This document shows positions 6,862-26,509 of a stretch of DNA of 26,569 nucleotides, in pieces (the stretch's first letter is position 1; each line of letters opens with the position of its first letter). Source of the DNA: an uncultured Chthonomonadaceae bacterium. Its GTDB lineage: Bacteria; Armatimonadota; Chthonomonadetes; Chthonomonadales; Chthonomonadaceae. The stretch covers positions 1 to 26,569 of the forward strand of contig CAZPZP010000001.1 in NCBI GenBank assembly GCA_964591025.1, written 5' to 3'. The position numbers and the translations under genes were made by a program. The notes under the pieces were generated by a model that had not been told where the DNA came from, ran no database searches, and worked only from the letters and a program-made list of their open reading frames with translations.

Positions 6862-6873
6862 TCGCACTCCATA

Positions 6874-6913
6874 ATGGGTCGTTGGGGCGTTAGGTGATTG
6901 GGTCATTGGGCAA
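6874..6913. repeat. Degenerate 8-mer tandem array (TTRGGTCR-like) x5
   Basis: ATGGGTCG TTGGGGCG TTAGGTGA TTGGGTCA TTGGGCAA. Confidence 0.75.
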
Positions 6914-6936
6914 TGCAGACACAACAGAATAAACGC

Positions 6937-6975
6937 CTCTGCTCGGGGCGTTCCGCCGTGTCGTGCTTCGCACTC
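6937..6975 (+). repeat. REP-like dispersed repeat, copy A (39-bp core)
   Basis: CTCTGCTCGGGGCGTTCCGCCGTGTCGTGCTTCGCACTC matches the core of the copy at 25144-25182 at 36/39 positions; contains the GTGC-TTC-GCAC mini-hairpin. Confidence 0.8.
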
Positions 6976-7005
6976 AAGAATCAGTGCATACGAACGCCAG
7001 TGGAA

Positions 7006-7053
7006 TTGCCCAATAACCCAACGACCCAATTACCTAATGACCCAACGACCTAC
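7006..7053. repeat. Degenerate 8-mer tandem array (YGACCYAA-like) x6, inverted relative to 6874-6913
   Basis: TTGCCCAA TAACCCAA CGACCCAA TTACCTAA TGACCCAA CGACCTAC; overlaps the pilC stop codon. Confidence 0.75.
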
Positions 7054-19749: not shown

Positions 19750-22700
19750 ATGTTTTCACCGAAATCTTTCTCTTATCGAATCTTCTTTTGCACTCTTTCC
19801 GCCTTCGTTCTGCTGATGGCGGCGTTTGGGATCAGCGTCGCCGATACCGCGCAAGCCACCGAAGTCTTTGAGAAGCAAATTCGCCCGATGATTGTGGATC
19901 AATGCTTTTCCTGTCATGGCGGCGACGTGAAATCTCCCATGGGCGGATTGCGACTCAACAGTCGGGCGGCACTGCTCAAAGGTGGAATACACGGCGCGGC
20001 TATCGTTGTCGGCAGTCCTGAATCCAGTCTGCTGATCAAAGCGGTCAAGCATGGGGCAGGTGTCTCGGCGATGCCCCCTTCCGGCAAACTTACGACGGAA
20101 CAGATCAAACTGCTTTCCGATTGGATACGCAACGGTGCGGTCTATCCCGAAGCGAAAAAAGCCACAACAGCCGCCAAAGGTTTCGACCTCAAAGCCCGCC
20201 TGAAACATTGGGCGTGGCAGCCGATCAAGCGCACCATTCCGCCAACAGTCAAAGACGCGGCTTGGGCAAAAAATCCCGTAGACGCTTTTGTTCGCTCCAA
20301 ACTGGAGAAAAAAGGATTCAAGCCGTCTCCTGCTGCCGATAAGCGTGTTTTGATTCGCCGCATCAGCTTTGACCTCACTGGACTGCCCCCGACTCCCGAT
20401 GAAATTAAAGCGTTTCTTGCGGATAAATCCCCGAATGCGTATGAAAAAGTCGTGGATCGCTTGCTGGCAAGTCCGCATTATGGGGAACGCTGGGCGCGGC
20501 ACTGGATGGATTTGGTGCGCTATGCCGAAACCGATGGACATGAGTTTGATTTTGATAAGCCGGGAGCGTATCAATACCGCGATTATCTCATTCGGGCGTT
20601 CAATGCCGACGTGCCGTACAATCAATTTGTGCTTGAACACGTCGCGGGTGATCTTCTGCCAACTCCGCGCAGAAACCCTAAAACCCAATGGAATGAATCG
20701 ATTATTGGAACCGCGTTCTGGTGGTTTGGCGAAGGCACACATTCGCCCGTCGATCTCAAAGTGGACGAGGCAGAACGCATTGACAATCAGATCGACGTAT
20801 TCAGCAAAGCGTTTTTAGGCTTGGGCGTCGCGTGCGCTCGCTGTCACGATCACAAATTCGACGCAATTTCCACCAAAGATTATTACGCGCTGTCCGGCTT
20901 TCTCAAAAGTTCGCGCTATTACGTCGCTGATCTTCTGCCGCCGCTGACCGCCGCTCGCAAATCCGAACTCAAAGCCGCGATGACAACGCTCCACGAATCA
21001 GCGGCGAAACACTATGCTCCGCAACTCGCCAATCTGCCGCTTCCTGCCGATTTTGTATTGGCTCCCGTTCCGAATGAGACGCCCGAAGCGTTCCGCAAAC
21101 GCCGCGAAGAGCGAGTCGCTTCTCTTCGCAAAAAAGAGACTGATGCCAAAGCCGCATTCGCCAGAACAACAGTCATTGCCGACTTCTCCCAATCCGAAAC
21201 TTATACCCAATGGACACTGTCAGGAGACGCTTTCGAGACAGCCCCGATGCATGGCGTTACGCTTCGTTTTGATCCCGAAAAAGGCGAGAAAGTCACGGGC
21301 GTATTCGGTTCCGGTTTGGCATACAGTGCCGCGCTCTCCGAGGGACTCTCCGGCGCGTTGCGTTCCAAAACCTTTGTTCTCAAAAAGAACAATCTGCTGT
21401 TTCGCGTGGCGGGGCGCAGTGGCAAAATCAACCTCGTCGTTGACGGCTTTCAGCGTATACGATTCCCGATTTATGGCGGATTGACCCTCGATGTCAATAC
21501 TGCTGACAGAATGCAATGGTTCGCGATGAACGTCACAAAATGGGCTGGCAGTCGCGCCTATCTGGAATTTTTGGACAACGGCGCGGGCTATCTCGCGTGT
21601 GACAAAGTTCTCGCCTCCGATGGCAATGCCCCACCCGACGCGCCGAATTCGCTTTTGCTCGCTGCTCTCGATGATCCGAAACTGACGACGTATGATGATT
21701 ATCTCGGCGAGATGAAATCTGCTCTGTCTCAAGCGGCGTTGAGTTGGAAGAGTGGCACGCTCGCCCAAACCGAAAACAGCACGCCGACAGCAGAAGTTTT
21801 AGACGCACTGCTGACCAAACTCCCTGCCGCACCGGAAATCGCCGCCTTAACTGCGCCTGTTCGAGAGATGGTAAAGCAAATTCCCGTTCCCGTCGGCGTC
21901 CTTGCCCTCACCGATGGAACGGCGGAAAACGACTTGGTTCATCTGCGCGGCAGTGTAAAATCGCTTGGCAGTGAAGTTCCGCGCCGCTTTTTGGAGGGCT
22001 GTAAGGGTAATTTGGTTCCGCCGCCGCTCCAAGGCAGTGGTCGCCTCGTGCTGGCACAACAGATGACCGATACCGCCAATCCGTTGATGGCGCGGGTTAT
22101 CGTCAATCGGCTCTGGCAGCACCATTTTGGGCGTGGAATCGTTTCGACACCTGACAATTTCGGCTTACTCGGCGAACGTCCTTCACACTCTGAACTGCTG
22201 GATTATCTGGCATCGGAATTGGTACGGCAGAAATGGTCGCTCAAAAAACTGCACCGTCAGATGCTTGTGTCCCAAACGTATCGCCAATCCAGCAAACGCG
22301 CCGATCTCAAAACCGAAGAACGCGATCCGCTCAATGTGTTGTTGCACCGAATGCCGGTGCGTCGTTTGGAGGCAGAGGGGATTCGCGATTCGGTGCTTGC
22401 CGTGTCGGGGCGATTGGACAGAACGCTGTACGGGGCAAGCGTCATGCCGTTCCTAACAGAGTTTATGGAGGGGCGAGGGCGTCCGGCAAAATCGGGAGAG
22501 TTGGACGGGTTGGGTCGCCGCAGTCTGTATGTCGCTGTTCGCCGCAACTTCCTGACACCGTTCTTTTTGGCGTTCGATTATCCGGTTCCGTTCTCCACCA
22601 TCGGACGCCGCACCGTCTCGAATGTCCCGGCGCAAGCACTCGCCATGATGAATAATCCGTTCGTGACGGAGATGGCGAAGCATTGGGCAGCCCAAATCGT

Positions 22701-22911
22701 CAAATTGCCGCTCGCGCCGGAACAGCGAATCGAGGCAATGTACGAGACAGCGTTCGGGCGTCCGCCTTCCGTTGCAGAAAAGCAGGATGCCCTCTCATTC
22801 CTGACGGAGCAGGGCAAAGTTTATGCCGCCACTGATCCCAATGATGGGCGCGTTTGGGCGGATTTGTGTCATGTTTTGTTCAATGTGAAAGAGTTTATCC
22901 TGATTCCCTGA
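19750..22911 (+). CDS. PSD1 and planctomycete cytochrome c domain protein (PSCyt1 + DUF1549 + DUF1553)
   Basis: Signal peptide; CFSCHG heme motif; [86 protein letters not shown]. Confidence 0.92.
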
Positions 22912-24003: not shown

Positions 24004-24318
24004 ATGATGACATTGACACCAGAGCAGGAACACAAAATCAAGATCATTGCGGCGCGTCAACAAAAACCCGCCGAAGCCGTTCTCAATGAATGGCTGGCAG
24101 GACAAATGGAAGAACACCCCGATGCTGTCCTGCAACGGCGGGCAATCCAACGAGTGAAAAATCAAGCCGCCATTGATCTTTTGGACAAATGGAGAGCGGA
24201 AGATACAACCGATGATCCCGAAGAATTGGAACGCTTGAATCGTGAGTACATGGAATTCAAAGCGGCAATGAATCAGAACCGCGCCGATACTGGAGAGGAA
24301 CCGGTATACTGTGATTGA
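24004..24318 (+). CDS. Putative antitoxin
   Basis: GGAGAAGG RBS; small acidic protein overlapping the downstream PIN gene. Confidence 0.65.
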   Translation: MMTLTPEQEHKIKIIAARQQKPAEAVLNEWLAGQMEEHPDAVLQRRAIQRVKNQAAIDLLDKWRAEDTTDDPEELERLNREYMEFKAAMNQNRADTGEEPVYCD

Positions 24319-24781
24319 AGCCGTTTTTCTCGATACTTCGCCGCTGGGAACTGCCTCCAAACGCCCGAAACAGTCCCTTGAAGTCGAGCAGTGTCAGGCG
24401 TGGGTACGGTCTCTGTTGGATGCCGGTATTCGGGTTATTGTGCCGGAAATTGCCGATTATGAAGTGCGGCGTGAGTTGGTTCGCTTGGCAAAACGCTCGA
24501 ACAATCGGGACTCCGTTGACCGCCTCGACAATTTTCTCAAGACAGTAGAATATCTGCCGGTTGATACGGAAACTCTCCGAGATGCCGCCGAATTGTGGGC
24601 AGAATCACGCAATCAAGGATTCGTAACAGCGGACAAACACGCGCTCGACGGCGACGTGATCCTGTGCGCTCAAGTGCTTCGTTATCCGATAGCCGCATCG
24701 AATATTGTGGTTGCGACCTCGAATGTGCGCCATTTGGAACATTTCGTCACTGCCGCTCTTTGGAAGAGTATCGTTCCCTAA
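24311..24781 (+). CDS. PIN-domain (VapC-like) toxin
   Basis: FLDTSPLG, PEIADYEVRREL, LDGDVILCAQ, VATSNVRHL: the acidic PIN residues are present. Confidence 0.88.
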   Translation: MIEAVFLDTSPLGTASKRPKQSLEVEQCQAWVRSLLDAGIRVIVPEIADYEVRRELVRLAKRSNNRDSVDRLDNFLKTVEYLPVDTETLRDAAELWAESRNQGFVTADKHALDGDVILCAQVLRYPIAASNIVVATSNVRHLEHFVTAALWKSIVP

Positions 24782-24785
24782 TGTA

Positions 24786-24919
24786 CGTCTTACCTCACCC
24801 CCGACCCCTCTCCTGACCAGTCGCAAGCTCCTTAGGAGAGGGGAGAGTTTAGGTTTGATTCTCCCCTCTCCCAGTGAGGAACGAACTTCCGGGAGAGGAG
24901 TCGGGGGTGAGGTAAGACG
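24786..24919. repeat. Palindromic doublet repeat (REPIN-like; CCTCACCCCCGACCCCTCTCC...GGAGAGG type)
   Basis: Outer 28-bp inverted repeat 24786-24813/24892-24919 (27/28) enclosing GGAGAGGGGAG/CTCCCCTCTCC inner arms. Confidence 0.85.
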
Positions 24920-25127: not shown

Positions 25128-25182
25128 ACAGCGAAATGAATTTCTCTGCTTGGGGCGTTCCGCCGTCCCGTGCTTCGCACTC
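25128..25182 (+). repeat. REP-like repeat copy B (left arm of 55-bp inverted pair)
   Basis: 54/55 identical to the reverse complement of 26455-26509. Confidence 0.9.
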
Positions 25183-25277
25183 TCAAGGCATTGCCCAAAA
25201 TAGATCAGTAACTACAAAGGAATTGGCTGGCTGGATCGCGAAATGGATATACATATAATTTCTGTCGAGGTTGCTCA

Positions 25278-26294
25278 ATGTTCCATCGGATAAAAATCGT
25301 TCTGCGAATCATTTTGCTATTGGTAATCTGCGCGATATACCCTATATCGTATAGTCAAACCAATGCCAACGCACAAACTTCTAAGCGTAAGCAGGTTCGC
25401 ACACTGAAACAGAATGATCGCGGAGTCGATATTGGAATTGTCAAAGTTGCAACCTCTTTATTTTCTGAACCGAGTGGAAATTCCACCAAAATCGGCACAT
25501 TTCGTAAAGGCAACTTGGCAGTATTGGTCTCAAGGCAAAAATCAAACGGCTGGCTCAATGTTGTTCAATTTATGTCTGGACATCAGGGTTGGGTCAAAGC
25601 AGAGAAACTCATACTGCGTTATACAAACCGTCGCCTGAAAGGGAAGGACTTTATCGGTGAAGCGTCAGGAACCTCTGAACCACCTAAAATAAAAGTGATC
25701 AACGCCTCTAACAAAATTTTGTATCTGCACATCAATGCAATGCCCGAAATTTCTGTTGCACCCAATTCGACGAAAACTATCACACTTCCTGCGGGACTTT
25801 ATACATACAATGGTGCTTCACCAAATGTCTACCCGGTTTTCGGGTCAATGTATTTTATTTCTGGATTTATATATACTTGGACGTTTACAATTGATTTGCC
25901 GGGTCGGAGCAAAAAGCGGAATATGATCAATCCAGCACTGATAGCGGAAAGCAAGCAGTTGCAAGAGGATATTAATAAGCACACACAAGAACTTAGCATC
26001 GTAAAACAGCAAATTGACGACTCGACAACTCAATTAGAGCAGCGGCGGAGAGATTGGAAAATAGACTCGGATACAATAGAGTTGAAACGGCAGACTCTTG
26101 ATCGCTCTGATGAAAGTGTCATTGCTGGATTTAACCAGTTCGTGGATACAACAAACAATAAATTGATCATCATCAAAGAGAAAGCGCAACAATTGGAGGA
26201 ATTAATTGCGGCATACAATTCTAACCTTAACTTCTTAAACGAACAAAGACGCCGACTTGAAAAGATTGCTAATACGATCAATATCCAAAGGTAG
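25278..26294 (+). CDS. Secreted protein: signal peptide, SH3b-like domain, beta-sandwich domain, C-terminal coiled coil
   Basis: Hydrophobic N-terminus; SLFSEPSGNSTKIG.F.KG....V.....GWLNV......GWV (bacterial SH3 pattern); heptad-rich tail. Sampled lines are 21-22 GC per 60 nt versus 28-33 in sampled core-gene lines. Confidence 0.7.
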   Translation: MFHRIKIVLRIILLLVICAIYPISYSQTNANAQTSKRKQVRTLKQNDRGVDIGIVKVATSLFSEPSGNSTKIGTFRKGNLAVLVSRQKSNGWLNVVQFMSGHQGWVKAEKLILRYTNRRLKGKDFIGEASGTSEPPKIKVINASNKILYLHINAMPEISVAPNSTKTITLPAGLYTYNGASPNVYPVFGSMYFISGFIYTWTFTIDLPGRSKKRNMINPALIAESKQLQEDINKHTQELSIVKQQIDDSTTQLEQRRRDWKIDSDTIELKRQTLDRSDESVIAGFNQFVDTTNNKLIIIKEKAQQLEELIAAYNSNLNFLNEQRRRLEKIANTINIQR

Positions 26295-26454
26295 TACGAG
26301 GCATTGCCTGTAATTATTCCATTTTACTTCTAATAGTCAGTTCGCGTGATTTTTAGCAAATCTACTCAGGCAAAATCCTGCCATTTGAGACAGAAGCCTT
26401 GAGAACACAAATACTAATCTTTAGGCGAACTGACTACTAATTGCAGCGCATTTC

Positions 26455-26509
26455 GAGTGCGAAGCACGGTACGGCGGAACGCCCCAAGCAGAGAAATTCA
26501 TTTCGCTGT
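26455..26509 (-). repeat. REP-like repeat copy C (right arm of 55-bp inverted pair)
   Basis: Reverse complement ACAGCGAAATGAATTTCTCTGCTTGGGGCGTTCCGCCGTACCGTGCTTCGCACTC. Confidence 0.9.

Follow-up and report, generated by a model that had tools for sequence, protein, structure and literature searches.

Near the right end of the window (the whole stretch of DNA that was analysed, 26,569 nt), a single AT-rich gene is enclosed by two inverted repeats that face each other. The initial annotation regarded this arrangement as a repeat-bounded non-autonomous cassette, either an element that captured and moves a passenger gene or a REPIN whose spacer acquired foreign DNA. The locus raises the question of whether gene and repeats have travelled together. 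According to the reading preferred here, to which a probability of about 0.5 is assigned, they have not: the bracket of REP-A repeats is static, or arose by chance, around a horizontally acquired gene. The bracketed unit comprises the following features.

25128 to 25194 (core 25128-25182), + strand: left REP arm, a copy of the repeat REP-A (repeat search, BLAST, DNA fold)
25278 to 26294, + strand: enclosed gene, 338 aa (ORF list, Pfam, structure model)
26330 to 26440, no strand assigned: MITE-like element of 111 nt beside the right arm and inside the bracket, bounded by 12-nt terminal inverted repeats (TAGTCAGTTCGC) and flanked on each side by CTAA
26443 to 26509 (core 26455-26509), - strand: right REP arm, an inverted copy of REP-A (repeat search, BLAST, DNA fold)

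The arms were recovered by repeat search as an inverted repeat of 67 nt (91% complementary, 1248 nt apart), and their 55-nt cores were identical at 54 of 55 positions in inverted orientation (BLAST against the own genome, E 5e-21), which confirms the inward-pointing 55-bp copies that had been described. As a sequence match, the arm pair is far beyond chance; the pairing of the arms is itself not beyond chance, because the genome contains at least 198 copies of the repeat. DNA folding yielded three small hairpins per REP-A unit, which in the left arm read CAGC-GAAAT..ATTTC-GCTG (hairpin 1), GGCG-TTC-CGCC (hairpin 2) and GTGC-TTC-GCAC (hairpin 3), followed by a weakly conserved inner extension up to 25194. 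The fold energy of REP-A is by itself non-significant (z -0.9 to -1.3). Across subfamilies and genera, the stems of hairpin 1 (GAAAT/ATTTC, GGAAT/ATTCC, AGAAT/ATTCT) and of hairpin 2 (GGCG/CGCC, AGCC/GGCT, GGCC/GGCC) are exchanged by compensation. Double changes were detected by RNAalifold in 5 of 11 pairs, with hairpins 1 and 3 staying paired through them; hairpin 2 was missed by this program, the alignment slipping by one column, and is based on direct reading of the sequence. When the flanks of the bracketed unit were read directly, GG alone was common to both sides, with no target-site duplication beyond these two nucleotides. No Rfam family was matched anywhere in the 26,569-nt window. 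A 10-nt direct repeat (AGGCATTGCC, at 25187 and 26298) was discounted, being roughly at chance level for 1.3 kb.

To place the arms in their genomic context, the segment 25120-25200 was compared by BLAST with the whole genome of origin (G000: 942 contigs, 4.87 Mb, 94% complete), in which the window is contig C1. At least 198 REP-A matches were obtained on 167 contigs, and 118 of the 198 lay within 200 nt of a contig end, which identifies REP-A as a main cause of the fragmented assembly of this genome and probably of those of its relatives; C1 itself stops 60 nt beyond the right arm. REP-A is mostly extragenic, with 13% of the copies located inside crude ORFs, vs 82% of the genome, and in metagenome contigs the depth of the arms reached approximately 400-700 times that of unique sequence. 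The near identity of the two arms had been taken to suggest a recent, joint origin. The partner arm matches at 54/55 positions, yet several unrelated copies match at 53/55; judging by these sequences, near identity is a property of the REP-A family and not of the arm pair. The third, shorter and diverged copy that had been noted at 6937-6975 proved to be real (36/39, or 45/55 over 6921-6975), and a second repeat, REP-B, was found to be more abundant in the genome than REP-A.

6921 to 6975, + strand: solitary diverged REP-A copy between inverted arrays of 8-nt repeats at 6875-6914 and 7005-7044 (repeat search, BLAST)
G000 C9:3773-3935 and C50:3793-3969: examples of REP-B

The solitary copy belongs to a composite of a REP-A core with 8-nt arrays (GGGTCRTT / AAYGACCC; window 6869-7053), which recurs on contigs C184, C540, C342 and C62. 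REP-B gave 448 matches, including 58 inward doublets that mostly have spacers of about 80 nt, and no cognate Y1 gene was found for it in the G000 assembly. The family is mosaic, many REP-A copies facing a REP-B copy, and the 5' half of REP-A (hairpins 1-2) also forms tandem arrays with a period of 45 nt (G000 C355:4990-5102 and C876:1-104). Short, REPIN-like inward doublets of the REP-A family were detected on contigs C762 and C84 (spacers of 106 and 114 nt) and in the relative G010 (spacer of 64 nt), where C1060:458-637 and C799:10682-10861 represent two copies of one inward doublet of 185 nt with unlike hairpin 2 stems in its two arms (GGCC/GGCC left, GGCG/CGCC right). Near-complete genomes of relatives contain the repeats scattered both as single copies and as inward doublets, the latter with 24-81 nt between their arms; over all clear doublets of the family, the spacer length is 17-130 nt.

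A partner (RAYT or IS) with the same ends as the bracket was sought by a Pfam Y1_Tnp search of the genome. Three intact Y1 genes were recovered, one of which, on contig C37, lies between copies of the same repeat.

G000 C37:122-580 (locus C37:1-660): Y1/HUH transposase gene, 153 aa, between two 64-nt, 100% identical inverted REP-A copies
G000 C134:5751-6452: second Y1 gene, between its own inverted repeats of 75 nt
G000 C326:2896-3486: third Y1 gene, between its own inverted repeats of 44 nt

The C37 protein matches PF01797 (79 bits, C37:152-493) and contains the HUH motif DHIHL and the tyrosine motif YIANQKQHH, corresponding to Y---Q--HH. It passes the NCBIfam IS200 model NF033573 (64.7 bits, cut-off 55) but not the RAYT model NF047646 (40.3 bits, cut-off 80). 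Its arms have the same geometry as those of the window, inward with hairpin 1 outermost, and the locus thus constitutes a REPtron-like arrangement. The REP-A subtype at C37 differs (hairpin 2 reads AGCC-TTC-GGCT), and the G000 assembly yielded no Y1 gene with the majority REP-A subtype at its flanks; such a gene may have been lost in contigs of less than 1.5 kb. An orthologue of the C37 protein from another metagenome (87% identical) carries the same REP subtype on its left side, its 719-nt contig stopping 15 nt into the right arm. The three G000 Y1 genes show mutual identities of 42-51%, and each is a single-copy gene between inverted triple-hairpin arms that match each other perfectly or nearly so; the repeat of the C134 type has 35 copies, 13 of which are inward doublets. 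Within the host family, Y1 homologues were detected in 26 of 41 genomes (one to seven per genome, 28-58% identity), all with the Y---Q--HH signature, and 16 of the 22 loci inspected had flanking inverted repeats of 42-75 nt, most of them built on the same three-hairpin plan. The inward orientation is common to all REPtrons and REPIN-like doublets of the host family. It is thus very likely that the arms belong to a dispersed family of REP-like repeats that has a Y1 partner in the genome.

This family shares several properties with the REP/REPIN-RAYT systems and their REPtrons (PMC2817692, PMC3116915, PMC3333891), namely hairpin-forming repeats that are short, lie outside genes and number in the hundreds, doublets whose inverted members are closely spaced, a Y1/HUH gene in single copy between inverted copies of the repeat, a separate repeat type for each Y1 paralogue, and BIME-like mosaics that include another REP type. 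High copy number, extragenic location, hairpins and a Y1 locus of the REPtron type were all found for REP-A. However, its unit comprises 55-67 nt with three small hairpins, vs one palindrome of 20-40 nt, and direct reading of the REP-A consensus revealed neither a GTAG nor a CGTC tag at the foot of a palindrome. RAYT class 2 has a Y---NP motif, in contrast to Y---Q--HH in the C37 protein, which thus falls outside the RAYT clade. The window pair is further set apart by its gene-containing 1.25-kb spacer. The signature Y---Q--HH defines subclass 1.2 of the TnpAY1 proteins, which are non-IS, low-copy and mostly cyanobacterial or from Bacteroidetes (Quentin et al. 2018, PMC6006769), and for which neither an association with repeats or REPs nor a function was reported in that study. 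The host-family Y1 genes resemble this subclass in their signature, in their low copy number per genome and in the lack of IS-like behaviour, but differ from its description in being nearly always flanked by dispersed inverted repeats.

Likenesses to other systems are more limited. TIRYTs and TIRtrons (Di Nocera et al. 2013, PMC3733652) likewise combine a tyrosine transposase gene with long terminal inverted repeats and moderately abundant repeat families, but they correspond to subclass 2.1 of Quentin et al. (PMC6006769), whereas the arms studied here consist of REP-like hairpins in about 200 copies. IS200/IS605 elements and PATEs have in common with the present system a Y1 enzyme, hairpin ends, the absence of target duplication and derivatives with a gene other than tnpA. 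In contrast, the ends of IS200/IS605 are not inverted repeats of each other but non-inverted subterminal hairpins, and the whole element, including tnpA, is present in multiple near-identical copies, whereas the single Y1 genes of G000 are 42-51% identical and each is located between inverted arms. The label MITE-like, which the initial annotation had considered for the bracket, fits the arms insofar as these are short, non-coding and dispersed and the unit is bounded by inverted repeats; it is not supported in view of the missing target-site duplication, and the sole partner found with the same ends is the Y1 gene. The MITE-like sequence at this locus is instead the 111-nt element at 26330-26440. 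G000 has another copy of this element, 99% identical, at C532:2704-2814, and in mat metagenomes the element forms its own contig at approximately 12 times unique depth (fold z -3.8).

Between the arms, only one ORF (25278-26294) was detected. The GC content of this segment is 0.404, vs 0.534 for the genome (0.41 for the gene), and only 0.24% of the 1.25-kb windows of the genome have a GC content of 0.415 or less, in line with the AT-richness reported before. A single gene without a transposase was also borne out: no transposase domain was found in the enclosed gene by Pfam, the sole transposase match (E 0.1) lying within a coiled coil. By contrast, the designation as an SH3-domain gene is weakly founded, since the Pfam SH3_3 match (E 0.016, 15.8 bits) stays below the 27-bit cut-off; look-alikes of the protein in the Atlas belong to SH3_3 clusters (score 0.90), which is taken as a lead only. 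At its N-terminus, the protein has a hydrophobic helix; a weak SH3_3-like beta domain, another beta domain and a C-terminal coiled coil follow, the last being confidently predicted to be antiparallel (residues 219-336). A fold search with the model was set aside, the model being poor outside the coiled coil (pTM 0.37). Among 5.8 billion proteins, only four homologues were identified (42-48% identity). They are encoded in unrelated genomes and contexts, and none of these loci has flanking inverted repeats. With the same query, 67 other genomes of the order yielded no match to the gene. Because of its foreign composition and its absence from these 67 genomes, we infer that the gene was recently acquired by horizontal transfer.

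Nothing shows that the enclosed gene has moved as a unit. Contrary to the proposal that the repeats captured and move it, the bracketed unit was present once in G000 and at the same single locus, with the same junctions, in every metagenome contig recovered, and no joint skipping the unit was found in the contigs of four metagenome runs, a test of low power because Logan contigs break inside every REP. No empty site was detected in relatives, the closest of which belong to other genera (approximately 78% DNA identity in cofH, no synteny; PSD1 is multi-paralogous). Among metagenome contigs, only two matched a 25-mer from the left flank exactly, and both were occupied; the contigs matched by the neighbouring PIN and HNH genes stop short of the arms. 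Thus, neither a second context nor an empty site nor an excision product of the unit was recovered from this material, which consisted of contigs and of genomes from outside the genus. With a spacer of 1248-1272 nt, vs 17-114 nt in genuine doublets, the unit also falls outside the dimensions of a REPIN doublet.

Depth in metagenome run X6 was uneven across the locus, reaching 21.4 in the left flank (with 6 SNPs over approximately 1,200 nt), 16.6 in the right flank and 8.7, with 0 SNPs, in the gene contig. This gap hints at a co-resident strain without the enclosed gene. A 204-nt contig of the same run departs from the window after 25063, and together with the depths it may reflect a second strain with another allele at the site.

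The orientation of REP-A copies was compared between neighbours up to 4 kb apart. Pairs were distributed as ++ (10), +- (6), -+ (6) and -- (4), and those more than 1 kb apart showed no orientation bias. In the relative G021, two inward-facing copies separated by 2.3 kb have ordinary PadR and AhpC genes of host GC content between them, and long inward pairs around DNA of host GC content were found for REP-B too. The initial annotation had itself stated that abundant, nearly identical and randomly oriented copies, together with relatives holding the gene without the repeats, would point to pairing by chance, and this is largely what was observed: the copies are abundant and near-identical, pairs with more than 1 kb between them have random orientation, and the distant homologues, which sit in unrelated genomes, lack the repeats.

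The bracket would be explained most probably, although no more than evenly weighted against all else, by REP-A copies occupying both intergenic spacers around a newly acquired gene. The several hundred REPs would fill about one in seven spacers and bracket several genes by chance; from about 200 REP-A copies distributed over some 4,500 intergenic spacers (the latter number being estimated), several genes are expected to have REPs on both sides. The Y1 enzyme would have spread the repeats one by one, using single-stranded hairpins as substrate, as has been suggested for RAYTs, and the enclosed gene would not have travelled with them. The locus is thus probably a REP-bracketed, recently acquired gene that is static. 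Several observations run against this reading. Of 144 low-GC islands in G000, only the island in the window has REP-A at an edge, and it does so at both edges and with the copies facing inward; random placement would yield approximately 3.3 islands with a REP at any edge, and an inward pair at both edges with an expectation of 0.005-0.07 (rough estimate). Moreover, both arms represent sub-variant A1 (GAAAT/ATTTC stem, T24), which was seen in only 3 of 46 full-length copies. The inward orientation, common to the REPtrons and doublets of the host family, and the depth gap in run X6 also weigh against a static bracket.

A second reading, less probable than the static bracket but worth serious consideration, is that an inward REP-A doublet or a Y1 locus existed beforehand and that a foreign segment of 1.25 kb landed between its arms or replaced the Y1 gene. 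The arms would then be of joint origin, and the present unit need not be mobile. The shared rare sub-variant agrees with this idea, as do the inward doublets of the same family in G000 and G010, and the change in GC content falls exactly at the right arm and within approximately 45 nt of the left arm. REPtrons of this family are organized as arm, 60-100 nt, gene, 15-50 nt and arm, and the window provides spacers of 96 nt and, after subtraction of the 111-nt MITE-like insert, 49 nt; the Y1 gene with the majority REP-A subtype is missing from the assembly. In addition, the right inner segment (window 26421-26454) has GGCGAACTG and GCATTTCGAG in common with the interior of the G010 doublet, and REPs are documented as insertion targets (PMC1525189). 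On the other hand, the enclosed DNA lacks an integrase, a transposase and terminal repeats of its own, and the similarity between the arms drops just past the 55-nt core, to 7/12 in the inner extension, a decay also shown by singlets. Elsewhere, copies of the majority REP-A subtype stand alone or pair with REP-B but do not form homo-doublets, and the inner flanks of the bracket have no sequence similarity to those of the C37 REPtron.

It appears unlikely that the unit is an active non-autonomous cassette, i.e. a REPIN with a passenger, whose inverted REPs would pair in single-stranded DNA and whose 1.38 kb would be excised and reinserted by a Y1 enzyme provided in trans. Such a partner with the same end geometry is encoded in the genome, the absence of a target-site duplication is expected for Y1 transposition, the gene has about 40% of the depth of the left flank in run X6, and the island is the sole bracketed one among 144. 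These points favouring mobility fail to separate a moving element from an old doublet or gutted Y1 locus that received foreign DNA. The cassette is further disfavoured by its restriction to a single locus in every assembly, with neither a second copy nor an excision or empty joint, by the different REP-A subtype around the resident Y1 gene, by the 17-130-nt spacers of all clear doublets of the family and by the report that REPtrons do not transpose as units (PMC6006769). Least probable is an assembly artefact in which an AT-rich segment from elsewhere was joined via the high-copy repeat. In favour of it, the 942-contig assembly breaks at these repeats, no Logan contig crosses an arm, and flank and gene depths differ in X6. 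Against it, the arms are crossed, with the same junctions, by JGI contigs assembled independently from different samples (L035 and L036 both arms, L076 the left arm), and the depths agree within approximately twofold in run X1.

What the analysis establishes for this genome is a well-populated REP/REPtron system with a three-hairpin unit and an enzyme bearing the subclass 1.2 signature, which provides orphan Y1 proteins of this subclass with a testable candidate substrate. The usual view of REPINs is that they contain no genes and persist in genomes by vertical inheritance. If, against the odds, the unit were a REPIN-type element with a 1.25-kb passenger gene that can still be mobilized in trans by the subclass 1.2 Y1 transposase, it would be a cargo-bearing REPIN that moves genes and the first example of a REP doublet capturing and transporting a gene, and the depth gap in X6 would correspond to a presence/absence polymorphism resulting from excision or insertion. 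The surroundings of the unit form an accessory-gene neighbourhood.

24004 to 24318, + strand: antitoxin-like small ORF, overlapping the next gene
24311 to 24781, + strand: PIN-domain gene
24786 to 24919, no strand assigned: dispersed repeat left of the bracket, unrelated to REP-A (28-nt inverted repeat, 96%, with a 78-nt loop)

Farther to the left, the planctomycete hallmark domains PSCyt1, PSCyt2 and PSD1 are encoded at window 19750-22911. The region beyond the right end of the window was read from L035, a JGI contig of 7.5 kb that is 99.9% identical to the window, and from G000 contig C673, and it contains an HNH gene, an ORF of 78 aa and a cofH-like radical SAM gene. The HNH protein (L035:2014-2412, - strand) is a stand-alone protein of 133 aa, the start of whose gene is overlapped by the 78-aa ORF, and in NCBIfam it comes closest to the HNH domains of IscB and Cas9, with scores far short of the cut-offs. 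A linkage of the HNH gene and the enclosed gene as a pair was rejected, as the HNH gene beside a distant homologue of the latter is unrelated to the one on L035. The repeat at 24786-24919 has a depth of approximately 25-30 times that of unique sequence; metagenome contigs break there, and matches to it are found in the relatives G006 and G015.
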